A stretch of 64,000 bases of DNA from positions 66,061 to 130,060 of the forward strand of contig JACOYB010000005.1 in the NCBI GenBank assembly GCA_016182085.1, in the 5' to 3' direction. Origin of the DNA: Candidatus Magasanikiibacteriota bacterium. Lineage in GTDB: Bacteria; Patescibacteriota; Patescibacteriia; Magasanikbacterales; GWA2-37-8. Shown here piece by piece: positions 3,986 through 42,010 of this stretch. Each line of letters starts with the position of its first letter. The stretch's first letter is position 1. Made by a program: the position numbers and the translations under genes. Below the pieces are notes generated by a model. It searched no databases, was not told where the DNA came from, and worked only from the letters and a program-made list of their open reading frames with translations.

Positions 3986-5311
3986 CTATGGAACTTGTTT
4001 TTTTAATTTTACAAACCCCCGAGATATTAATGAGTCGAGTACGCGCCAATACCAGTATAAGACCTTTCTTCTAAGCTCTGATGAAATATTTTGTGAATGC
4101 GAAAAATCTAACCGGCTTAATTTCTGATATTGCTTGCCATACTCCAAAAGCATCTCAGCTGAAGGAAAAATTTGTTTTAACACTTCGGAGCTCGGTACTA
4201 TACCAGCTAATTGCTCATAAGCTAATTCATATTGTCTAATGCCTACTGGTAAGCCAAAACTTTTTTCCACCTTTTCTCGGCCAGCCTTACCAAAGGCTTC
4301 CACATGCTGCGGCTTACCCGCTAAATCTGCGATCGCTGCAGTTAGACCGCCCACACTATGAACAACCCAGCCAGTTTTACCATTTTCAACTTGCTCTAGC
4401 TGTCCATTATCCCAGTGAGGCGTATTTTCAACCACGATGGGTAAAGACCAAACCATGGCTTCATTCAAGCTATTTCCAAAAGCTTCGCCGCGACGCGAGG
4501 TATGAATGTATATATCAAGCATCTGATACGTTTCGGCAATTTCTTGCTCCAATGATGATTCTGGCAATACGATTACCCTGCCATCAAAAAAATGATGCTT
4601 TTTTAACCAATTCAAACGAGAAGCGGGTATGGTACGAAACAAAATTTTAATTTTATTATTTATTTTAAATATATCCGGCAAAGCGGATAAAACTAAATCG
4701 CCCCATTTAACCGGATCATTGCGTCCGATACGCCCCAGCAGTATTTCATCTGATTTTACGCCCACAGCCTCGCGCAATGCTTGCCGACGTTCCGGTGAAA
4801 TCTGAAACTGCTGGAAATAACTTATCGTAACCGGATTATATATCACGCGCTGCTTAAGACATTTGTTTTGTTCGGCTTGTTTACCTTGCCAAATTCGCTC
4901 ACTCACCATCATCATGCTTTTAAAAATTTGTAAATCAAACTTTGGGCCAAGATTTGGATCAGAAAAAGCAAATACATTGGTTTCCATAAGTTTTTTTGGA
5001 CGCAAATAATCAGTCGCGGCTTGATGCAGCTGCTCAAATTGGCCGCTGCGATGGAAATGTAAAATATCAATATCCGGATTTGGCATTAACTCTTTTATTT
5101 TCTCCAGAGTTCCATTTCCAATTAAAATCCGCACGCCTTTTTCTTCCAATAATTTAACTCTGGACCCGCCTCGCTCCAAACAAAGCACCGTTACATCAAA
5201 TTTTGATTTATCTAAATACAAAGCCAGAGTCTGCACTGTTCTTTCGGCGCCGCCAATATCAAAGATATTTGTCGCGATAACTATTTTAATTTTATTGCTT
5301 GTCATAGGCAA
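3986..5311 (-). CDS. GT4 (group 1) glycosyltransferase
   Basis: GEAFGNSLNEAMVWSLPIVVENTPHWDNGQLEQVENGKTGWV is a GT4 C-terminal Rossmann motif. 441 aa. Confidence 0.8.
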   Translation of the reverse strand: MPMTSNKIKIVIATNIFDIGGAERTVQTLALYLDKSKFDVTVLCLERGGSRVKLLEEKGVRILIGNGTLEKIKELMPNPDIDILHFHRSGQFEQLHQAATDYLRPKKLMETNVFAFSDPNLGPKFDLQIFKSMMMVSERIWQGKQAEQNKCLKQRVIYNPVTISYFQQFQISPERRQALREAVGVKSDEILLGRIGRNDPVKWGDLVLSALPDIFKINNKIKILFRTIPASRLNWLKKHHFFDGRVIVLPESSLEQEIAETYQMLDIYIHTSRRGEAFGNSLNEAMVWSLPIVVENTPHWDNGQLEQVENGKTGWVVHSVGGLTAAIADLAGKPQHVEAFGKAGREKVEKSFGLPVGIRQYELAYEQLAGIVPSSEVLKQIFPSAEMLLEYGKQYQKLSRLDFSHSQNISSELRRKVLYWYWRVLDSLISRGFVKLKKQVP

Positions 5312-7220
5312 AAAAAGTCTGCAGCCATTGTTTTAAGAGCAGTAAACACCATAAATGATTGCTGTAATCTGCCCGTCCTTTTTTATGGTCTTCCAAAAGT
5401 TTTATAATACAATTTTTATTAAAATATTTATACAGTAAACTATCCGAAACAATCAAACTATCATAGACATAACTGTATAGTTCATTCCGCATCCAAGATC
5501 CGATCGGGATGCCAAAACCAATTTTACGCCGAGCGATGATTTCAGTTGGAATTTTATCTTTTACTATCTCTTTCCAAATCCACTTTACTTGTCCGTTTCT
5601 AACTTTATATTGCTCGGGCAAACTCAAAGCCAATTCTACCAGCCGATGATCTAAAAATGGCGCGCGATTTTCCAAAGCGGAAATCATGCTGGCAAAATCA
5701 ACTTTTAACAAATAATTATCCCCCAGCCTGCCAACGATATCGGCAAGCATCGCTTTATTCATTGTGCCGTAATGCGAAACCCTGCCTTCTCCCCACCACT
5801 GGCGCATTAATTTTTCAGACAAATCAAAATCAATCTGTTCTTTGAGCTCATCAGAATATAAATCGTCTTTGGTCAAATAAAAATGGCTTTGTTTTAATTC
5901 TTTTTTCCAAATTGCGTAATAATCAACATAGGCTTGCTCTAAACTATGGCTCAAGACCTCGGCGCGATAAAATAATTTTTGCAACGATAGTTGGCCGGTA
6001 GCCGCCAGCAACTTTGCGGCTTGTGGAATAATTTTTTTATAAACCACGCCTGGCAAACTTTGATAATTCTTTAAATTTCTTAGAAAAGAATGGTTTGGAT
6101 AACCGCCAAAACATTCATCGGCGCCATCTCCGGTCAAAACCACGGTAACATGCTTTTTTGTTTCCTTGGCCATAATCATCGTTGGCAAGGCGGCATTATC
6201 AAAAAATGGCTCCTCAAATTGATGCACGAGCGCTGGCAAATTTTCTACAACATTTGGCTCAATAATAATTTCCGTATGATCTGTCTTAAATCGATCTGCG
6301 ACAAGTTTTGCAAAAGACAGCTCGCTTTGAGCCTGGTCTTTAAGACCAACTGAGAAAGTTTTTATACTGCTTGTAGATACTTCCGCCATCGCGGCCACAA
6401 CCGAACTTGAATCTAAACCGCCGCTTAAAAAAGCGCCTACCGGCACGTCGCTAATCATTCTGCCTTTAATTGAATCTTTAAATATATCCCAAATATCTTT
6501 TTTCCATTCTTCCAGCGACTTATTTTTATTTTCTTTGGCATAATCAAAAGCTTGCCAGTATGGAGTAACAGAAATATTTCCTTGTCGCCAAATTAAATAA
6601 TGGCCGGCTGGCAATTTTTTAATATGTTTAAATCCGGTCTGGGGCGCTGGCACAAACCGATAGGTCATGGCCAAATCTACCGCCTGCCAATCTGGTTCTC
6701 TGGCCACGCTTGGGTCTATTAAAATTGATTTTAGTTCGGAGGCAAAAATAAATTTCTCTTGATCTGCATAATACTTAAATGGTTTTTCACCCAATCTATC
6801 CCTGGCTGCAAATAAAGTTTGTTCTTGATTATCCCAAATCGCAAACGCAAACATGCCGTTTAACTTATCCAAACATTTTTCTTTCCACTGAATATATGCG
6901 TTTAATAACACCTCTGTATCGCTTTGCGTGTTAAAACTCCAACCCAAGCCGATCAGCTCATTCTTAATTTGTTCGTAATTATAAATTTCACCATTAAAGG
7001 TAATGATAAAACGGCTATCCCGGCTCAGTTTGGGCTGATGACCGCCTGGCGACAAATCAATAATCGCCAAACGACGATGTCCCAAAGCCACAGTCTCTGA
7101 TTGGTTCATCCAGGTGCCATCGCTTTCTGGACCGCGATGCCGCACCGCCAAAAGCATCTTGGCAAAAAGATTTTTATCAATTTTTTGTTTGTTTTGAATA
7201 ACACCGACAATACCGCACAT
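5292..7220 (-). CDS. asnB: Asparagine synthetase (glutamine-hydrolysing) family amidotransferase
   Basis: MCGIVGV N-terminal nucleophile Cys. SGGLDSS PP-loop ATP pyrophosphatase motif. Start set so Cys is residue 2. Confidence 0.9.
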   Translation of the reverse strand: MCGIVGVIQNKQKIDKNLFAKMLLAVRHRGPESDGTWMNQSETVALGHRRLAIIDLSPGGHQPKLSRDSRFIITFNGEIYNYEQIKNELIGLGWSFNTQSDTEVLLNAYIQWKEKCLDKLNGMFAFAIWDNQEQTLFAARDRLGEKPFKYYADQEKFIFASELKSILIDPSVAREPDWQAVDLAMTYRFVPAPQTGFKHIKKLPAGHYLIWRQGNISVTPYWQAFDYAKENKNKSLEEWKKDIWDIFKDSIKGRMISDVPVGAFLSGGLDSSSVVAAMAEVSTSSIKTFSVGLKDQAQSELSFAKLVADRFKTDHTEIIIEPNVVENLPALVHQFEEPFFDNAALPTMIMAKETKKHVTVVLTGDGADECFGGYPNHSFLRNLKNYQSLPGVVYKKIIPQAAKLLAATGQLSLQKLFYRAEVLSHSLEQAYVDYYAIWKKELKQSHFYLTKDDLYSDELKEQIDFDLSEKLMRQWWGEGRVSHYGTMNKAMLADIVGRLGDNYLLKVDFASMISALENRAPFLDHRLVELALSLPEQYKVRNGQVKWIWKEIVKDKIPTEIIARRKIGFGIPIGSWMRNELYSYVYDSLIVSDSLLYKYFNKNCIIKLLEDHKKGRADYSNHLWCLLLLKQWLQTFFAYDKQ

Positions 7221-34157: not shown

Positions 34158-35618
34158 ATGTCTCAAGAAAACGTTATAATCAGCTTTGATAAGGTGAACT
34201 TCGCCTATAACCCAAACAAGCCTATTTTGGAAGAGGCCAGTTTTTCGGTGCGCCAAAATTCCAAAATCACTATCATGGGACAAAACGGCGCCGGCAAAAG
34301 CACGATTTTTAAGCTAATTACCAAAGAAATTAAACCAGAAAGCGGGCAAGCAAATGTAAGTCTGGGCTCCACCATCGCGATTGCTACTCAAGTAATGAAA
34401 CCAGAAAATTTAGAAAAAACCATCGAAGAATTCTTTGCTCAGTTGTTTGATAAAAAAATGTATGATCTGCCAAAACGCATTGCCGAGGTTTTGGACATCG
34501 TACACCTAACTGCTCCGCTTGATAAAAAAATAAAACAATTCTCAGGCGGCCAACAAGCCAGGTTACTTTTGGCATACGCGCTTATTCAAAAACCAGATAT
34601 TTTGCTTTTAGACGAACCAACCAACAATTTAGATACAGCTGGCATAGACCACTTAACCGCATTTCTGATGGCTTATCCAAAAACCTGCTTGGTTATTTCT
34701 CACGATGCCAACTTTTTGAATGCCTTTACCGATGGCGTTTTGTATTTGGATTCTTTTACTCAAAAAGTAGAGCAATACGTGGGCGACTACTACAATGTGC
34801 TCGGAGAAATCGAAGCTCGTATTGAACGCGAACGCGCCAAAAATGCTCAATTGCGCCGCAGTATTCAAGATAGAAAAGACAAAGTAAACTTCTTTGCCAA
34901 TAAAGGCGGTAAGATGCGCGCGCTGGCCAGCAAACTTCGCGACCAAATAGAAGAGGCCGAAGAAAATATGGTGGATGAACGCCAAGAAGACAAAACTATA
35001 AATGATTTTACCATCCCCTCTCAACCAGAAATTATCGGGCCAATGGTAGAAATAAAATCGGTAGGAGTGATGATAGAGAGCGTTCCGGTGCACAAAGCAA
35101 TTTCTCCAGCTATTACGGTTCGCAAAAAACAACGGCTGCTTATCAAAGGGCCAAACGGCATTGGTAAGAGCACGCTTCTGCATGCACTAGCCAGCGGCAC
35201 CGAAGAAGGTGCGATTATTACTCCAGATGTTCGCGTTGGTTATTATCGCCAAGATTTTTCCGGTTTAGATTTTGATAAAACCGCTTATCAAGCCCTAGAA
35301 GAAATGATGCCTAATCCGTGGAACCAGGAAATCTATGCCACGGGCGCGCAGTTTTTGCTTTCTTCTCAAATTTTAAAAAATAAAGTTGGATCGCTATCCG
35401 AAGGACAAAAAGGTTTACTGTGCTATGCCAGATTTGTCTTGCAAAAACCCGGCCTCCTTATTATGGATGAGCCGACCAACCATATAAACTTCCGCCACCT
35501 ACCTATTATCGCCAAGGCCTTGGATGATTTTGAAGGCGCGATAATTCTCGTAAGCCACGTTCCGGAATTTGTGGAACAAATTAAGATTGATCAGGTCTTG
35601 GATTTGGAAACTCTCTAA
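34158..35618 (+). CDS. ABC-F family ATPase (tandem ABC domains, no TMD)
   Basis: Two Walker A motifs (GQNGAGKST and GPNGIGKST), two signature motifs (LSGGQQAR and LSEGQKG) and a charged linker between the domains. Confidence 0.85.
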   Translation: MSQENVIISFDKVNFAYNPNKPILEEASFSVRQNSKITIMGQNGAGKSTIFKLITKEIKPESGQANVSLGSTIAIATQVMKPENLEKTIEEFFAQLFDKKMYDLPKRIAEVLDIVHLTAPLDKKIKQFSGGQQARLLLAYALIQKPDILLLDEPTNNLDTAGIDHLTAFLMAYPKTCLVISHDANFLNAFTDGVLYLDSFTQKVEQYVGDYYNVLGEIEARIERERAKNAQLRRSIQDRKDKVNFFANKGGKMRALASKLRDQIEEAEENMVDERQEDKTINDFTIPSQPEIIGPMVEIKSVGVMIESVPVHKAISPAITVRKKQRLLIKGPNGIGKSTLLHALASGTEEGAIITPDVRVGYYRQDFSGLDFDKTAYQALEEMMPNPWNQEIYATGAQFLLSSQILKNKVGSLSEGQKGLLCYARFVLQKPGLLIMDEPTNHINFRHLPIIAKALDDFEGAIILVSHVPEFVEQIKIDQVLDLETL

Positions 35619-35917: not shown

Positions 35918-36334
35918 TTATTCTTTTGTATCTGCAGCAGGTTGATTTAAACAAAATTCTATATAATCCCAGTCTTTTACAATATTTGCCCTATTTTTAT
36001 TAGCTTCTTTTAAGCCTTTAACCTGCGTAGAAAACAAACTACTATCATCTGTATTATCAAGTAGAGTAAAAGATGATTTGATACCACTTAGTCTATTTTT
36101 AATAGTTTCACAATCTGTATACGCATTTAAATTATACTGATTTGCTATGTCTACTAACTGATTGGAAAGCATGCTTTGCATAGCAACTCTAGTAAATATC
36201 TTATCGATATCAGAACTTTCAAGTTTTTCAATTCTCACTTCCAAATCCGCAATCTTTTCTTTGTCTTCATTATTTAAATTGCATCCAGTGCCCATCAAAA
36301 TTATAGCCAAACAAACCAATACTATTTTTTTCAT
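35918..36334 (-). CDS. Lipoprotein (hypothetical, coiled-coil)
   Basis: Signal peptide with lipobox LMGTGC. 138 aa. Confidence 0.6.
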   Translation of the reverse strand: MKKIVLVCLAIILMGTGCNLNNEDKEKIADLEVRIEKLESSDIDKIFTRVAMQSMLSNQLVDIANQYNLNAYTDCETIKNRLSGIKSSFTLLDNTDDSSLFSTQVKGLKEANKNRANIVKDWDYIEFCLNQPAADTKE

Positions 36335-36364
36335 AATTAAACATTAAAATGCTTTTACACAGAC

Positions 36365-37210
36365 TTATTCAGGCACACAAGCATCATCTACTTCAACGAA
36401 CCCTCGTTTACAGTACCAACTTGATCCTAACACATAAGCGTTTGACGGTGCGATTACTTTCTCGCAAGAATTATTAACTTCCCTGTAGCCATTCTTACAA
36501 TACCAGCTTGAACCTAATATGTATGCATTCGGAGGGGCGATAACTTTTACACAAGAATCATTTTCTTCTTTATAGCCATTCTTACAATACCAGCTTGAAC
36601 CTAAAACATAGGCGTTCACTGGGGCAATTACCTTTTCACAACTATCGCCTACTTCTTTATATCCATTCTTGCAGTACCACTGAGAGCCTAAAATATATGC
36701 ATCTTTTGGGGCAATAACTTTTTCGCAAGTTTCACCGATCTGTTTGTAACCATTTTTACAATACCACTCTGAACCCAACACATAAGCGTTTAGAGGCGCT
36801 ATTACTTTCTCACAACTCTCGCCCACTTGCCTATACCCATTCTTACAATACCAATCGGATCCTAATACATAACCATTAGCAGGTGCTTTAACTTTTTCAC
36901 AGGTTTCATCAACTTGCTTATAACCATTCTTACATACCCAACCCATACCAGATGTTAATGCATTTTCTGGAACTTTCTTTAACGGACAATCATAACAGTC
37001 TTTATAATATCCGCTTGGTGGATACACAACTCCGCCACCGGCAGGATATGTTGGATATAAGCATGGATGTCCAGCATCTCCACATGTATAAGAACCAGTA
37101 TCAGAAGGACAGGAGTGCCAACGATGACAACCAGAGCGATGGGCAAAAGCAGGTGCTGATAAAGACAATACCCCTAATAAAACAACTAAAGCTAGTATGT
37201 ATTTTTTCAT
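36365..37210 (-). CDS. Secreted cysteine-rich tandem-repeat protein
   Basis: Signal peptide (AFA cleavage site). N-terminal HRSGCHRWHSCPSD motif. About 8 tandem ~27-aa repeats with consensus NAYVLGSxWYCKNGYxxVxxSCEKVIAP, two Cys per repeat. Confidence 0.7.
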   Translation of the reverse strand: MKKYILALVVLLGVLSLSAPAFAHRSGCHRWHSCPSDTGSYTCGDAGHPCLYPTYPAGGGVVYPPSGYYKDCYDCPLKKVPENALTSGMGWVCKNGYKQVDETCEKVKAPANGYVLGSDWYCKNGYRQVGESCEKVIAPLNAYVLGSEWYCKNGYKQIGETCEKVIAPKDAYILGSQWYCKNGYKEVGDSCEKVIAPVNAYVLGSSWYCKNGYKEENDSCVKVIAPPNAYILGSSWYCKNGYREVNNSCEKVIAPSNAYVLGSSWYCKRGFVEVDDACVPE

Positions 37211-37331
37211 AACTCTCTATTACGTTTATATTAAAATCCTATCAAAATTACTAAAATTTTACAATATTACAGTAAATCAGTTTTACCCTACCGAGCTCTA
37301 CTACCAAAAAAGAAAGCAAATAATAAATCGA

Positions 37332-37856
37332 CTAAAATGGTATTTCTTCTTTAACTGTAGGTACTAAATTTAAATTTTTCAAACGATACATCATCGCTTC
37401 CTTACTCACCTGATACTGCTCAGCTAGTTTTTTTAAACTTTCACCATTAACATACAAAGCATCTTTAACTTCTCTTTTAAAATCTTCTACTAAAAACTCT
37501 TCCGGCATTAAAAAATTGGCTGCAAAAAGGTCGGCTCTTTTTTCTTTTTGCGGTTTGTCTGTAAGTGATGTCTTATTTCTATAATCAACTGTTACAGTCT
37601 GATCTGTATCAAAAATAAAATGGGCTAACTCATGGGCTATAGTAAAGCGTATTCTGGATTGTCTTTCATCAGAATTAACCCCCATAAGAACTCCCCCATC
37701 TGATTTTCTGATTAAAACCCCTGAATACTCTTTACTGGGAGCGTAGCTTATATTTATCCCATATTGTGCCACGATATATTCAACAGGCACAGGTGCTTTT
37801 TTAATACCAAAACTATCTAAAATTTCTTTTGTTTTTTCAATAGTTAATTCTTTCAT
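37332..37856 (-). CDS. ImmA/IrrE family zinc metallopeptidase
   Basis: HELAHFIFD is an HEXXH motif. Paired directly with the upstream XRE regulator. Confidence 0.8.
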   Translation of the reverse strand: MKELTIEKTKEILDSFGIKKAPVPVEYIVAQYGINISYAPSKEYSGVLIRKSDGGVLMGVNSDERQSRIRFTIAHELAHFIFDTDQTVTVDYRNKTSLTDKPQKEKRADLFAANFLMPEEFLVEDFKREVKDALYVNGESLKKLAEQYQVSKEAMMYRLKNLNLVPTVKEEIPF

Positions 37857-37860
37857 ATTT

Positions 37861-38205
37861 TTATGCTATCCAACCTAAGATTTTCCCCCATTCTAAAATC
37901 TTCTCATCTTCACTCTTTATATTTTCTATATCAGTCTTACTTAGCGCAACACCTTCTAATCTTTTCGGAAAAAAACCTGACATCTCACACCCTAACAAGG
38001 AAGACAGCTTCCACAGAGTAACGCCGTTTACATTATTTCTGCCATTCTCTATTTGTGAATATGCAACCCTTGTCATGTTTAACGAATTGGCGATAGTTTG
38101 CATGCTTATTTTCCCTCTCAATTTTATGCGTGCAATTTTAATATTTTTAGCTATTTGCTCCTTTATTTCTTTATCCGCTAGATTGCTCATCTTCTTCTTT
38201 GCCAT
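37861..38205 (-). CDS. XRE family helix-turn-helix transcriptional regulator
   Basis: QTIANSLNMTRVAYSQIENGRNNVNGVTLWKLSSLLG is an HTH_3 motif. Confidence 0.8.
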   Translation of the reverse strand: MAKKKMSNLADKEIKEQIAKNIKIARIKLRGKISMQTIANSLNMTRVAYSQIENGRNNVNGVTLWKLSSLLGCEMSGFFPKRLEGVALSKTDIENIKSEDEKILEWGKILGWIA

Positions 38206-38328
38206 ACTTATTATAATATAAGTCTTGCTTTCTTCCTATGTGTACAGAAAGTAATTTTTTATTAACTTATAAACTTTTAATTACTATTAAGATATAAATG
38301 TTTATATATGTAAAACTATAACAAATAC

Positions 38329-38357
38329 TTTACAACTTGTCAAATTAGCGCTAGAAT
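38329..38357 (+). promoter_or_regulatory. Sigma70-like promoter TTTACA-17-TAGAAT in the divergent region upstream of the DUF3892 gene
   Basis: TTTACA at 38329-38334, 17-nt spacer, TAGAAT at 38352-38357. ATG at 38437. Confidence 0.35.
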
Positions 38358-38436
38358 AAGATCAAGTTAAAGGGTTCTTTGCTAAAAAGCTGGTCGATAT
38401 TGAACCCGATTATTCATTAAGCGAATATATAAAAAT

Positions 38437-38733
38437 ATGGCAATCAAAATTAATTGTATCAATAAAGATAATGGCGATCACTATGATCCACACGAGGCTA
38501 TCATTAACCTCGGCTGGCTAGAGGAAGCCACTAACAAGCATGGGGTAAACACTCGGCTAGAAATGGTAGCGTTCATAGAAAATGAGGGGGGCCAAGCATA
38601 TGTCAAAGATGCATATGGAAATAAGGCTTACTTGGTAGTAAGAGAATCTCCGTGGGGAAATAAGTATATGAAAACTATGGCAGATGGTAGAGAAACTAAT
38701 AACTTACTGGCATTATCTGAGTGCCAACGTTAG
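38437..38733 (+). CDS. DUF3892 domain protein
   Basis: 98 aa. CINKDNGDHYDPHEAIINLGW...NNLLALSECQ matches my recollection of the DUF3892 conserved core. Confidence 0.6.
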   Translation: MAIKINCINKDNGDHYDPHEAIINLGWLEEATNKHGVNTRLEMVAFIENEGGQAYVKDAYGNKAYLVVRESPWGNKYMKTMADGRETNNLLALSECQR

Positions 38734-38840
38734 TTCAATAGAAATAGAATAAGGTGGTGGTGCGACTTAGAAACCTAACTGTTGCTCCACCACTCTTCCT
38801 AATACGCGAGCGTAGTCGAACTCGTAACACTTTATTTAAA

Positions 38841-39071
38841 CTAATTAAAAGTATGACACGCATCAGAGGAAACCAAGACGGCCCAAATGGCCGCAATGAA
38901 AGTTACCGCATTGGTAGCAGAAATCATGTCCCACGAGTTCAGGCTGTACGAGAAGTTGAACAAGGTAAACATCCGGGAGCTCATGTGGTAAATATAAACC
39001 ACAGAAATTACGTACGTGATAATCCAGATAGTTCTACAAAAGACAACGTAAATCAAAAATAGGACAGGCAT
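38841..39071 (-). CDS. Small two-helix membrane protein (hypothetical)
   Basis: 76 aa with two hydrophobic segments. The overlapping plus-strand ORF is Arg-rich and looks like antisense noise. Strand choice is uncertain. Confidence 0.3.
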   Translation of the reverse strand: MPVLFLIYVVFCRTIWIITYVISVVYIYHMSSRMFTLFNFSYSLNSWDMISATNAVTFIAAIWAVLVSSDACHTFN

Positions 39072-39337
39072 ATAAAAGAGCCCTTACTGGGTTCTTTTAT
39101 ATTATATGTAAATTAAGCAATAACCAGAAGATTTTTACTCATTTTCTAGATATACACCAGTACATTGCTTTATTTTTACACTAAACGACGATATATGAGT
39201 CGATACTTTGGCTTTAATCAGCTTGTGCATATCGGTTCATTGTCTTTGTTTTTCCTGTATGTTAGAATAATATCGACATTTACCAGTCGATATACAATTT
39301 AAAGACCTAAACCTTTATAATTAAAATATATAAACAA

Positions 39338-39376
39338 ATAACCCTCCCGAATTAGGAAGGGTTATTTTTGTTTTAA
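39338..39376. terminator. Rho-independent terminator hairpin downstream of the DUF378 gene
   Basis: ATAACCCTCC...GGAAGGGTTAT stem flanked by T-runs on both strands. Confidence 0.5.
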
Positions 39377-39382
39377 AAAATT

Positions 39383-39610
39383 CTACATCATCGGTTTTGC
39401 TTCGCAAGCTTTGCAATCTTTTTTGTGGCACAACGCCAATTCTACGGCTGATAAACCAACTAAAACGTATATCACTCTGGAAACCATTGCGCCTTGGCCG
39501 CCGAAAAGCGCGCCTACATCCCAACCAAATAATCCTACCAAGAGCCAGTTTACGCCTCCCACTATTACTAGCGCGAAAGCTACCATATGAAGCCATTTGT
39601 TTTGTTTCAT
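39383..39610 (-). CDS. DUF378 family small membrane protein
   Basis: HMVAFALVIVGGVNWLLVGLFGWDVGALFG matches the DUF378 signature. Start chosen at the Met of MKQNKW, preceded by a perfect GGAGGTG Shine-Dalgarno. Confidence 0.7.
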   Translation of the reverse strand: MKQNKWLHMVAFALVIVGGVNWLLVGLFGWDVGALFGGQGAMVSRVIYVLVGLSAVELALCHKKDCKACEAKPMM

Positions 39611-39693
39611 AATGTCACCTCCTCTCAATACAACTTAAGAGACTACCTTCTACGAACCAAAATCTGACCTGTATATTGTATCACACATTTTCT

Positions 39694-40557
39694 TTATAAT
39701 ACCAACCCTTCCCGATTCTCTTCTTCTTTTCTATTTAGAATATACACATCGGCATTGTATTCGTCATTTCCCACAAACTCGGCTTTTTTGTCTAGGATAG
39801 CTTCCATAGGGGCGCATGTGGAGCAGCCATCACCCGCGGCGCATTTGTACCGTTCCAACTGACGGGCCAATTTTACTTGTCTGGCCACATCCAAAATTCT
39901 TTTATGAGAAGTTTCCAAATCCGGCAGTTCTTTAGGCGAAAGCTGGTCACTGCTATCCAAATACCAATAGCTGGCGCGGCTGGCTTGGCGTTTTTGACAG
40001 TTTTGTACCAAGAGCCTATAAATCGGCAGCTGCAATGATTCGCCGTCTTCTTCGCTCTTGCCGGTTTTAAAATCTATAATATGCACGCTATCGGTATCGG
40101 GCAGATACTCCAGCCAATCTATCTTGCCGCATAAAATAATACTATCCTCTTCGGATAACCAAAATTGCGGCAGATCCATTTGGATTTTTACCGCTAACCC
40201 CGAAATTGGCCCGGGATTATTCATTACCCGTCGTATCATGTCTTGGCCACGAGTTTTGTATTTATATTCTGTTTCCGGGCTGGTAAAACCGCCCTTTTTG
40301 CCGGTTACTTTACCCCAGACCTTTTCAAATTTATCCATCAGCGAATCGGAAAATCTGGAATGCTTAGGTAGTACCGATAATGATTCCAATACTTCATGCA
40401 CGGCCGAACCCAACGCCAAAGCCGGGCTTACTAATTTTATTTTATGATTGGTTTTTGGGTCGCGGTATACGTTTTTTAAGTAATACGCGCGCGGACAGCG
40501 TAAAAAATCGCTTATGGAACTATGCGATACCCAGGTAGCAGTATATTTATCGGGCAT
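39694..40557 (-). CDS. PD-(D/E)XK nuclease with Cas4-like Fe-S cluster cysteines (stand-alone)
   Basis: N-terminal RCPRAYYL. IDWLEY...IIDFKTGK is a PD-(D/E)XK core. C-terminal C-x5-C-x2-C (CAAGDGCSTC). No cas genes or array nearby. Confidence 0.6.
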   Translation of the reverse strand: MPDKYTATWVSHSSISDFLRCPRAYYLKNVYRDPKTNHKIKLVSPALALGSAVHEVLESLSVLPKHSRFSDSLMDKFEKVWGKVTGKKGGFTSPETEYKYKTRGQDMIRRVMNNPGPISGLAVKIQMDLPQFWLSEEDSIILCGKIDWLEYLPDTDSVHIIDFKTGKSEEDGESLQLPIYRLLVQNCQKRQASRASYWYLDSSDQLSPKELPDLETSHKRILDVARQVKLARQLERYKCAAGDGCSTCAPMEAILDKKAEFVGNDEYNADVYILNRKEEENREGLVL

Positions 40558-40562
40558 AAGTT

Positions 40563-40715
40563 ACAATTAAAAGTGTCATCCTGAATTTATTTGCAAGTTG
40601 AGTGAGAGAAAAGTAAATTTTTACTTTTCCGAACGAGCGAAGCAAATATGTTTTAACTATATTTCAGGATCCCCCTGATACCATAAGATCCCGAAACAAG
40701 TTCGGGATGACAGCT
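40563..40715. repeat. Composite palindromic intergenic element (TGTCATCC...GGGATGACAG termini), containing one copy of the GAGTGAG-hairpin-CGAACGA module
   Basis: Terminal inverted motifs gtgtcatcctgaa and ttcgggatgacag. Internal hairpin GATCCCGAAACAAGTTCGGGATG. Internal module GTTGAGTGAGAGAAAAGTAAATTTTTACTTTTCCGAACGAGCGAAG is homologous to the ftsA-upstream tandem repeat. Confidence 0.6.
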
Positions 40716-40881
40716 AGGAATCCAAGGCATCGGCTACAGCGTCTTCTTCGCTTTCGCCTTCATCAAGAAGCCGCACTGCTTTGGCTGCCTGCTCTTCATC
40801 TAAATTAAAATCACTCATCAGTTCGTCAACCGCGGCAGCGACATCTTCTACCGGTTTTTCTTCATCAATTTGATTTTGCAT
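40714..40881 (-). CDS. Small acidic protein (55 aa, hypothetical)
   Basis: ORF MQNQIDEEKPVEDVAAAVDELMSDFNLDEEQAAKAVRLLDEGESEEDAVADALDS, found by hand and below the ORF-track cutoff. Its stop codon lies inside the palindromic element. Confidence 0.3.
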   Translation of the reverse strand: MQNQIDEEKPVEDVAAAVDELMSDFNLDEEQAAKAVRLLDEGESEEDAVADALDS

Positions 40882-41117
40882 ATATTTTTATATTAATTAT
40901 TAAAATTAAAAATTTTTAGTTCGGACATATTCATTTTTTCCCCCATCTCCACTCCGGTTTTTCACCTGTATAATAGCAGATTATAATTAAAATTACAGTG
41001 GATAAAATAAACGGCTTACCAACCTTATCTTACCCGAAAAATAAATTCGTGGCAACATTGACTTTGCTCACTCAGAAGAGTCTGGTGGAACTTATGCAAG
41101 AAAAAGACAAAAAAATT

Positions 41118-41654
41118 TTAATTTAAAGTGAGCAGGCCTGATTTTTCTAAAATATCCTGCCATCTTTTCATTTGATTTTCAGTAAGCCAAGAAAAAACCG
41201 GAATAAATTCCTCTTCCGGCGCGCTTGCTTTATTCTGCTCTTCAATCATTTTTTCAATTACTTCATCAGTTAGCGCGCCATCGTTATTTACAGGATTAAT
41301 TTCGGAAATGGATTCCAACTCATTTTGCTGCATTTGTTTCTCTAAATTTCTAACTTTTATGGCTTTCTGAAACAACACTTTCATTCTGAAACCTTTATCT
41401 AAAATATAGCTATCAACCGCTTCGGCATATAATGATTCAAAATCTTTAATGTGTTCCAAATGTCTTTCTTTATATCCTTTTATCGAGCTTTCACTAATAG
41501 TTATCGCGTCTTCCTCTGAAACTGGAGGCAAACTTAATAACATCATATCCTTTTCTAGGGATTTTTCGCCATCTCTGCAGAATTCTTCAATAAGATTTCT
41601 TAACTGCTTAACTTCTTCAAATTTTTTCTCCATCTTATTTCTTTCGCCTTCCAT
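41118..41654 (-). CDS. Hypothetical coiled-coil protein
   Basis: The long ORF reads through tRNA-Thr. Trimmed to the internal Met (MEGERNK...) downstream of the tRNA. No recognised domain. Confidence 0.45.
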   Translation of the reverse strand: MEGERNKMEKKFEEVKQLRNLIEEFCRDGEKSLEKDMMLLSLPPVSEEDAITISESSIKGYKERHLEHIKDFESLYAEAVDSYILDKGFRMKVLFQKAIKVRNLEKQMQQNELESISEINPVNNDGALTDEVIEKMIEEQNKASAPEEEFIPVFSWLTENQMKRWQDILEKSGLLTLN

Positions 41655-41680
41655 AAAAAAAATATTTACAGTTATACTAG

Positions 41681-41753
41681 AGCCGAGAATGGGGATCGAA
41701 CCCACGACCTGCGGTTTACGATACCGCTGCTCTACCAGCTGAGCTATCTCGGC
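41681..41753 (-). tRNA. tRNA-Thr (anticodon CGT)
   Basis: Hand-folded cloverleaf: acceptor GCCGAGA/TCTCGGC, D-arm GCTC-AGCTGGTA-GAGC, anticodon stem GCGGT/ACCGC with loop ATCGTAA, T-arm GTGGG-TTCGATC-CCCAT. CCA is not encoded. Confidence 0.85.
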
Positions 41754-41759
41754 GTAATT

Positions 41760-41872
41760 CCTTGAGCGGACGATGGGAATCCCCGCCCGCCATCGCAAGC
41801 TTGAGCTTGTTTAGGCGTTGCGGGCGGGGAACCCACGACTCAACCTTGCCTGCCCGCCAGCGCTTCGTTTGA
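41760..41872 (-). other. GC-rich degenerate tRNA-like fragments (pseudo-tRNA remnants)
   Basis: The minus strand contains GTCGTGGGTTCCCCGCCCGC and GGGGATTCCCATCGTCCGCTCAAGG, which resemble T-arm/acceptor halves of the flanking tRNAs. No complete cloverleaf could be folded. Confidence 0.35.
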
Positions 41873-41942
41873 GCGAGTGAAGGGAATCGAACCCTCATCT
41901 CAACCTTGGGAAGGTTGCATACTGCCACTATACTACACTCGC
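41873..41942 (-). tRNA. tRNA-Gly (anticodon CCC)
   Basis: Acceptor GCGAGTG/CACTCGC, anticodon stem CAACC/GGTTG with loop TTCCCAA, T-arm GAGGG-TTCGATT-CCCTC. CCA is not encoded. Confidence 0.8.
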
Positions 41943-42010
41943 GCAGGCGAAGCGGGCGGGGGAGAAGGTCGCGTATTACCATTACACTACGCCCGCATGC
42001 ACAGAGGCTC

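Follow-up and report, generated by a model that had tools for sequence, protein, structure and literature searches.

A secreted Patescibacteria protein joins a highly conserved N-terminal His/Cys module, possibly a metal-binding cap, to seven predicted two-cysteine hairpin repeats

What is the role of an exported protein in which a short segment rich in histidine and cysteine precedes a strictly regular array of cysteine-containing repeats? We addressed this question for a gene in a 64,000-nucleotide (nt) stretch of contig JACOYB010000005.1 from a Candidatus Magasanikiibacteriota bacterium; the whole stretch is referred to below as the window. The list of open reading frames (ORFs) sets the limits of the gene at exactly 36365..37210 on the minus strand, encoding 281 amino acids (aa). 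The product is a real, secreted protein of a Patescibacteria (candidate phyla radiation, CPR) bacterium. A first homologue search gave 411 matches at E<=1e-3, every one of them from metagenomes or from CPR metagenome-assembled genomes (MAGs); the window protein itself had no exact entry on protein look-up. The reading we tentatively favour is that of a Sec-exported envelope or extracellular protein built from three modules: a signal peptide that is cleaved, a ligand-binding cap (metal being the most probable ligand), here called the head, and a rod of repeats that would act as tether or spacer. The elements of the gene, all on the minus strand, are as follows.

36365..37210: complete coding sequence, 281 aa plus stop codon (ORF list)
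37142..37210: predicted signal peptide, aa 1–23 (MKK, hydrophobic core, AFA), from the sequence
37061..37141: head core, aa 24–50, HRSGCHRWHSCPSDTGSYTCGDAGHPC, with 4 Cys, 3 invariant His and 2 invariant Asp
36971..37060: head extension, aa 51–80, LYPTYPAGGGVVYPPSGYYKDCYDCPLKKV, including a C-x-x-C; conserved in long-head homologues and specific to Patescibacteria
36884..36970: repeat 1, aa 81–109, the most divergent unit, also kept in paralogues that join the head to PG_binding_1
36797..36883: repeat 2, aa 110–138 (motif spacing, AlphaFold2)
36710..36796: repeat 3, aa 139–167 (motif spacing, AlphaFold2)
36623..36709: repeat 4, aa 168–196 (motif spacing, AlphaFold2)
36536..36622: repeat 5, aa 197–225 (motif spacing, AlphaFold2)
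36449..36535: repeat 6, aa 226–254 (motif spacing, AlphaFold2)
36368..36448: repeat 7, aa 255–281, a 27-aa terminal unit ending at the C terminus

The protein starts with MKKYILALVVLLGVLSLSAPAFA, a signal-peptide-like segment, followed by HRSGCHRWHSCPSD. A basic n-region is followed by a hydrophobic core of 14 residues and an A-x-A site, the segment ending ...SAPAFA before a histidine; AlphaFold2 places a helix at aa 2–17. These features make it a classical Sec signal of the signal peptidase I type, with predicted cleavage after AFA, and they bear out the preliminary description of the protein as secreted or extracytoplasmic. The site is kept among homologues. Residue -1 is Ala in 223/228 and Gly in 3/228, residue -3 is A, V, S or T in 214/228, and, with cleavage by signal peptidase I as predicted, +1 is His in all 228, the head starting at a median residue of 26. 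We considered a bacterial lipoprotein and rejected it: the lipobox [LVI][ASTVI][GAS]C is absent, the H-R-S-G stretch before Cys28 is not hydrophobic and His24 is invariant. In the favoured reading, signal peptidase I would cut after AFA and the mature chain would begin with the head His.

Numbered from His24 as position 1, the head core follows the motif H-[RQ]-[SD]-G-C-H-R-W-H-S-C-P-S-D-x-G-S-Y-x-C-G-D-x-G. Residues 24–47 of the window protein fit every invariant column of this motif, with AFA directly before His24, and H-[RQ]-S-G-C-H-R-W-H-S-C-P-S stands right behind the signal peptide in 106 of the top 120 homologues. Within 24 residues the head has four Cys and, as invariant residues, His at 1, 6 and 9, two Asp, one Trp and one Tyr. 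The columns outside the fixed search pattern, S13, D14, G16, Y18, C20, G21, D22 and G24, are at least 99% conserved across 228 proteins, and position 25 is Tyr (66%) or His (31%). Exactly four Cys lie within the first 34 residues in 217/228 heads. The head is always N-terminal and is present once per protein in 231/245 cases. Among genome loci, a 57-aa long head with an extra YYKDCYDC segment is confined to Patescibacteria. As far as its sequence can tell, this strongly conserved segment has the look of a ligand- or metal-binding site, in keeping with the earlier proposal that the His/Cys-rich head could bind metal.

The head belongs to none of the small cysteine modules that it superficially recalls. 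A zinc knuckle or zinc ribbon was rejected, the ligand spacing C-x2-C...H/C-x(n)-C being absent, and so was a link to Zn_ribbon_Top1, as those matches are separate cytoplasmic C-terminal domains of relatives. Searched against the PDB, the head profile gave chance matches only (the immunoglobulin (Ig) F-strand motif D-x-G-x-Y-x-C, and the HIV nucleocapsid zinc knuckle at E 0.16). The Pfam domain 'YHYH', which occurs in connection with phage tails, is distinct from the head.

How far has this module spread, and how old is it? With aa 24–80 as query, HMMER was run over all of 1.84 billion cluster representatives and found the head in 530 clusters (50% identity) at E<=1e-3, and a scan of one genome per GTDB species yielded 122 relatives, with 80 loci kept. 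Isolates with the head include Streptomyces, Actinacidiphila, Microlunatus flavus and Deinococcus saxicola. It also occurs in Nitrospinota (one single-cell genome included), Chloroflexota, proteobacteria, Rokubacteria and Saprospiraceae and, among archaea, in Nitrososphaerota (on contigs of up to 1.27 Mb) and one Woesearchaeote. In the loci named here, residues 1–25 are 84–92% identical; for the head core in Streptomyces, Deinococcus, Nitrospinota, Chloroflexota, proteobacteria, Nitrososphaerota and Woesearchaeota the range is 84–100%. Compared with the window head, those at 79 bacterial and archaeal loci have a mean amino-acid identity of 0.87 and a third-codon identity of only 0.36, and G+C content at third codon positions (GC3) in the head tracks the host genome, from 0.16 in the window to 0.96 in Intrasporangiaceae. 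Because third-codon identity is low and GC3 is host-like, the data point to a head that has long resided in its hosts under protein-level constraint and disfavour recent horizontal transfer. The combination of about 87% identity with host-adapted coding DNA therefore argues for a precise, shared chemical constraint.

As a separate observation, ORFs of the large-serine-recombinase type lie less than 5 kb from head genes in five loci of CPR, Actinomycetota and Archaea (among them L014:115-1659), and some copies of the head gene may sit on mobile elements.

No description of this module came to light. Scans of the head alone and of the entire protein found no match for the head segment in Pfam-A (2025 copy), NCBIfam 20 or PHROGs; no PDB relative emerged by sequence profile or fold; and the head was absent from searches of GenBank phages and IMG/VR. 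A plasmid search returned two Deinococcus records, annotated solely as 'SH3 domain-containing protein'. Cluster names of head proteins read 'hypothetical protein' only. An entry for the head in a more recent Pfam or InterPro release is conceivable, but precomputed labels from a newer Pfam give, for most head proteins, '-' or the partner domain only. Among 8 million full texts no paper was found with the head motif strings, and a literature search on histidine braces produced nothing relevant to the head. As far as the searched resources show, the head is a widespread, strikingly conserved and undescribed N-terminal His/Cys module.

The invariant His at +1 calls for comparison with metal centres that use a processed N terminus. 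An N-terminal His exposed by processing is a hallmark of the histidine braces of lytic polysaccharide monooxygenases (LPMOs), CopC and YcnI and of the Ni-hook of nickel superoxide dismutase (NiSOD), all of which depend on it. As in LPMO families AA9–AA17, CopC, YcnI and the Ni-hook, predicted cleavage of the window protein would expose an N-terminal His, with H6, H9, C5 and C11 of the head nearby. By this analogy, the head is most likely an extracytoplasmic ligand- or metal-binding cap that would use its free N-terminal His. The likeness does not extend to homology: histidine-brace proteins have domains of more than 100 aa, whereas the head has about 27, and the two share no detectable relationship in sequence or fold. 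Membership of the LPMO, CopC or DUF1775 families was rejected in the absence of any Pfam, NCBIfam, PDB sequence or fold match. The NiSOD Ni-hook was rejected because the head N terminus reads H-R-S-G-C-H-R-W-H-S-C, with Cys at 5 rather than 2 and without the P5-C6-G7 of H-C-x-x-P-C-G-x-Y.

The same analogy could be taken further, to a miniature redox or catalytic metal centre, a Cu site like a histidine brace or a Ni site like the Ni-hook, that works on envelope polymers or nucleic acids while repeats or PG_binding_1 provide targeting. The obligate His at +1 after signal-peptide cleavage would fit such a centre, as would the C-x-x-C in the CPR head extension and the proteins in which a head accompanied by PG_binding_1, SH3 or G5 is the sole candidate for a catalytic domain. 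We nonetheless hold catalysis to be distinctly unlikely, since a resemblance to any histidine-brace family is missing in sequence and fold, some 27 aa is very small, no redox partner or copper chaperone appears in the genomic context, and some of the fusion partners of the head have catalytic activity of their own (SNase, HtrA, Endonuclease_NS).

These fusions belong to a wide range of architectures, in which the following domains and segments accompany the head.

PG_binding_1: the commonest partner in CPR, 11/125 representatives
SH3_3, G5, GW, PG_binding_3 and Excalibur
Staphylococcal nuclease (SNase) and Endonuclease_NS
HNH-like nuclease together with a sunset domain
HtrA-type protease
NHL propeller, in Nitrososphaeraceae
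DUF4214 and DUF6636
Big_13-type Ig arrays, then a transmembrane segment, then a cytoplasmic domain, in Actinomycetota (630–710 aa)
Transmembrane segment, then a cytoplasmic Zn_ribbon_Top1

The head is extracytoplasmic in every one of these architectures. Because its partners are diverse and all arrangements place it outside the cytoplasm, the head would be an autonomous binding or sensing module that fits any type of envelope. Moreover, some proteins consist of the head and a wall-binding domain only, or of the head, a transmembrane segment and a Zn-ribbon only, which argues for the head as the functional or sensing end. A more far-reaching proposal, possible but doubtful at present, is that the head is a pan-prokaryotic extracytoplasmic metal centre formed by the amine and side chain of His1 with His6 and/or His9 and held by two disulfides, a module for sensing, scavenging or redox chemistry. 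It could then be plugged into hosts as different as wall-binding proteins, nucleases, proteases and transmembrane sensors, a suggestion that we put forward with the same reserve.

Two of these architectures deserve separate mention. Six Actinomycetota loci and others from the phylum (Streptomyces and relatives) encode, at about 5001-7000 of the locus, the head followed by Big_13-type Ig-like arrays, one transmembrane helix and some 200 aa of cytoplasmic domain; this gene adjoins the tuf / ribosomal-protein S10 operon in several genomes. In five other proteins the head is joined through a low-complexity linker to a transmembrane segment, behind which lies a cytoplasmic C4 zinc ribbon of the Topoisomerase type. 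From its domain order, this second type resembles a transmembrane sensor of the single-pass kind, whose sole external domain would be the head.

A strictly N-terminal, single-copy segment ahead of very diverse passenger domains is also what would be expected of a sorting or anchoring tag read by dedicated machinery, an N-terminal counterpart of LPXTG or PEP-CTERM. Yet no conserved neighbour gene was found to co-occur with the head in any phylum; nor do monoderms, diderms, Deinococcus, CPR and archaea share an envelope target to which a tag could attach. Known sorting tags are, moreover, far less conserved in sequence than the head. We regard a tag as very unlikely.

The closest architectural relatives of the window protein come from Patescibacteria. 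Proteins that join the head to PG_binding_1 share with it the signal peptide, the 57-aa long head and often the first repeat, with 70–87% identity over these parts. They differ in length and ending: at about 170–195 aa they end in PG_binding_1, whereas the window protein ends in six more repeats. By sequence, the window protein and the CPR proteins made of long head, repeat 1 and PG_binding_1 clearly form one family. Because the rod occupies the position that PG_binding_1 holds in the commonest paralogues, it would plausibly serve as tether or spacer.

What, then, is the rod made of? The regular tandem repeat with two Cys per unit, reported in the preliminary description, is confirmed by motif positions and spacing, with corrected numbers: that description counted eight repeats of ~27 aa and a DNA periodicity of ~75 nt, and we find seven repeats of 29 aa with a period of 87 nt. 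W-x-C-x-x-G-[YF] starts at aa 91, 120, 149, 178, 207, 236 and 265, a spacing of exactly 29 aa in 6/6 intervals, and each unit has one Cys pair, at unit positions 13 and 24. Tandem Repeats Finder reports a period of 87 nt (6.1 copies, 72% matches, score 253) and also one of 174 (score 448). Such regularity is far beyond chance.

The DNA of the repeats records their history. Units 2–6 are 69–79% identical as protein and 66–78% as DNA; DNA identity between unit pairs spans 58–78%, falling to 48–65% where unit 7 is one partner. Between repeats, identity at codon positions 1, 2 and 3 is 0.82, 0.85 and 0.44, a pattern that indicates purifying selection on the protein. Since third-codon identity is so low, the repeats, read from their sequence, are old duplications held by protein-level selection, with no slippage-prone tract. 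This bears on the earlier suggestion that the repeats could drive copy-number variation, and on the stronger reading of a contingency locus, in which slippage or recombination would change copy number rapidly and so produce phase or antigenic variation. Copy number does differ among homologues, from 1 to 7, and units 5 and 6 share an exact run of 32 nt; that much of the suggestion stands. Instability driven by the repeats is unlikely at these identities, with that one 32-nt run confined to units 5 and 6 and the other exact shared runs at 17 nt or less. A phase-variable locus would need near-identical DNA units, and 58–78% identity with third-codon identity of 0.44 is far from this. We consider a contingency locus highly improbable.

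AlphaFold2, given a 32-sequence alignment, modelled the entire repeat region with confidence (predicted local distance difference test, pLDDT, 94–98), each unit having four short strands that form two β-hairpins. In repeat 2, for example, the strands span 113–116, 119–122, 126–129 and 132–135 at a pLDDT of about 97. The first Cys of a unit lies at the end of strand 2 and the second at the start of strand 4, so placed as the C5–C6 disulfide of an epidermal growth factor (EGF) domain (C-x-x-G-Y-x6-C). The earlier idea of a β-hairpin array is thus upheld as a prediction. By contrast with the repeats, the head core scores below 50–63 in the same model and the head extension 75–87.

The resemblance to EGF is partial. 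The motif of the EGF C-terminal sub-domain, C-[KN]-x-G-[YF]-x6-C, is present in 7/7 units and is spanned by the AlphaFold2 hairpin, and Pfam EGF_MSP1_1 (PF12946) scores 33.4 bits against a cut-off of 27, summed over five partial matches to profile positions 22–37 of 37. A repeat does not qualify as an EGF domain, however: an EGF unit of about 30–40 aa has six cysteines in three disulfides (C1–C3, C2–C4, C5–C6), and each repeat has two. Neither a full-length EGF profile match nor a significant fold match was obtained, the alignment being limited to half of the profile. The repeats were not placed in a well-characterised family of known function, in spite of the score above the EGF_MSP1_1 cut-off. 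The best PDB matches from Foldseek were EGF1-6 of NELL2 (6pog_B; E 5.8e-4, probability 0.99) and Delta-like 1 (4xbm), followed by the Eph cysteine-rich domain, TNFR and MSP1-19 (1n1i) with non-significant E-values; TM-scores were low throughout. As judged from the models, these best structural matches, tandem EGF, Eph and TNFR cysteine-rich rods, are all weak. The repeat unit may be described as a minimal one-disulfide EGF-like double hairpin, a predicted variant of the known cysteine-stapled hairpin module.

Against other libraries the entire protein gave Pfam matches beyond EGF_MSP1_1 that were spurious (LIM and others), nothing significant in NCBIfam or PHROGs, and chance MHC matches only in a PDB sequence search.

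Compared with EGF arrays, the window protein has the same C-x-x-G-[YF]-x(6)-C motif in a β-hairpin and the same elongated, head-to-tail rod of small Cys-stapled modules. It differs in having 2 Cys rather than 6 per unit, 29 aa rather than about 40, a bacterial (CPR) origin and a repeat consensus in which the calcium-binding EGF consensus is not evident by eye. The cysteine-rich domains of the Eph and TNF receptors are fold analogues of the rod, with non-significant Foldseek E-values. CW_binding_1 and the TcdA CROPs resemble it in being short, aromatic-rich β-hairpin repeats, lined up in extended arrays within proteins that bacteria secrete, and TcdA (2qj6) is a weak Foldseek match to the repeat region (E 0.24). 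Unlike the window repeats they have about 20 aa and no disulfide and form a solenoid, and the window protein has no significant similarity to them and no Pfam match.

Among homologues, which carry 1–7 units each, 112 units give the consensus P-x-N-[AS]-x-[VT]-x-G-x-x-W-[YS]-C-[ND]-x-G-[YF]-[KR]-x-V-G-x-x-C-[EV]-K-[VI]-x-x, with G8, W11, C13, G16, Y/F17 and C24 conserved in the logo. The period of 29 aa is family-wide (56/64 spacings). The closest genome relative, a Patescibacteria MAG (L001), has seven units, like the window protein, and is 69% identical over the best tblastx segment of 211 aa. Among the genome loci scanned, the repeats are restricted to Patescibacteria. Searches with the repeats alone, as single sequence or as profile, were uninformative, returning a handful of short proteins, which we attribute to the word index with short queries.

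In six homologues WxCxxGY repeats stand behind a different module, which follows the signal peptide in place of the His/Cys head and reads Y-[VI]-x-V-x-G-Y-Y-R-K-N-G-T-Y-V-x-P-H-x-R-S-N-P-N-G-x-x-Y-D-N-Y. Its precomputed labels are PF27744 and PF18836. Among the homologues, the precomputed annotation gives PF27744 for P0008 and P0015 and PF27023 for P0007 and P0040.

Another division of labour can be proposed, in which the repeats are an adhesin for a host or partner cell and the head is a disulfide-knotted N-terminal cap that binds no ligand and serves, for instance, aminopeptidase resistance or the nucleation of folding. The repeats are aromatic-rich and rod-like, with 1 to 7 copies among homologues; structurally they come closest to modules for interaction at eukaryotic cell surfaces, and an adhesin is to be expected of an episymbiotic CPR bacterium; on the side of the head, four Cys in 217/228 heads and a genomic context without metal genes would suit a structural knot. 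Such a cap, however, has no need of a His exactly at +1, nor of an invariant set of three His and two Asp, with a Trp and a Tyr, maintained at about 87% identity across two domains of life. Many members, moreover, are made of the head and just a wall-binding domain or transmembrane segment; in these the head must be the functional part. We judge this explanation to be unlikely.

We therefore return to the three-module reading, in which the head would form the functional end, as a small cap for a ligand that is most probably a metal. The metal ligands would be the free N-terminal His, His6 and His9, possibly with Asp14 and Asp22, and the four head Cys would form two disulfides or provide thiolate ligands. 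Each 29-aa repeat would form two β-hairpins, probably stapled by one disulfide in the geometry of EGF C5–C6, and the seven together would build a stiff, aromatic-rich rod, serving the head as tether or spacer at the cell wall or at the surface of a partner.

Several points weigh against this reading. AlphaFold2 leaves the head core unfolded, perhaps for want of a cofactor, perhaps through intrinsic disorder, and the four head Cys could be purely structural, a disulfide knot. Metal binding by the head is put forward on the strength of its sequence and of analogy. Peptidoglycan or glycan binding by the repeats is putative, and the C13–C24 disulfide within each unit is predicted. The genomic context, moreover, offers no help: neither all-against-all ORF clustering at 80 loci nor a Pfam census of 109 flanking ORFs, taken from non-Streptomyces positions, found a conserved neighbour of the head gene, and none of these 109 ORFs is a metal-handling gene.

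The sole neighbour family seen more than two times is Excalibur, at three loci. Single neighbouring ORFs matched Endonuclease_NS and Endonuclease_1, both extracellular nucleases; because the head is also fused to SNase, Endonuclease_NS and HNH nucleases, this hints at an association with extracellular nucleases.

In the window, an ImmA/IrrE–XRE pair precedes the gene, and farther upstream, at higher window coordinates, lie a DUF3892 gene, a PD-(D/E)XK nuclease gene and two tRNA genes.

35918-36334, minus strand: lipoprotein-like ORF with coiled-coil-like sequence, starting MKKIVLVCLAIILMGTGC
37332-37856: ImmA/IrrE peptidase
37861-38205: XRE helix-turn-helix regulator
38437-38733: DUF3892
39383-39628, minus strand: small membrane protein containing 'VGGVNWLLVGLFGWD', which may resemble DUF378
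39694-40557: PD-(D/E)XK nuclease
41680-41753: tRNA-Thr
41871-41942: tRNA-Gly

The lipoprotein-like ORF follows the target gene after 30 nt. Because it lies so near the target stop codon and on the same strand, the two may be co-transcribed; no convincing terminator was found between them. This ORF has no Pfam match, PHROGs gave it weak matches short of significance (at best E 0.0056, with families whose function is not known, and an Rz-like spanin at E 0.03), and it is not kept beside head genes elsewhere. Comparison with the closest relatives matched the gene itself alone, the flanks not being syntenic. G+C content is 0.348 over 36–38 kb against roughly 0.36–0.43 in other 2-kb bins, and the region from 36000 to 42000 resembles a low-GC accessory region, in which no integrase was seen. 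The head gene has a double ATPase of the ABC-F type nearby both in the window (34158-35618, plus strand) and at three other loci, two from CPR (one of them Uhrbacteria) and one from Deinococcus, with L007 (5989-7794) among the examples; this proximity is probably a coincidence.

A module so short is rarely so conserved, and this one is shared by Streptomyces, Deinococcus, CPR and ammonia-oxidising archaea at about 87% identity. The repeats are of narrower interest, as a minimal one-disulfide EGF-like hairpin that a bacterium would use as a building block for rods. If the head does carry a metal site built on its N-terminal His, it would be a new and very small member among the extracellular metal centres, and hundreds of envelope proteins that now lack annotation would gain a function, the abundant wall proteins of Patescibacteria included.

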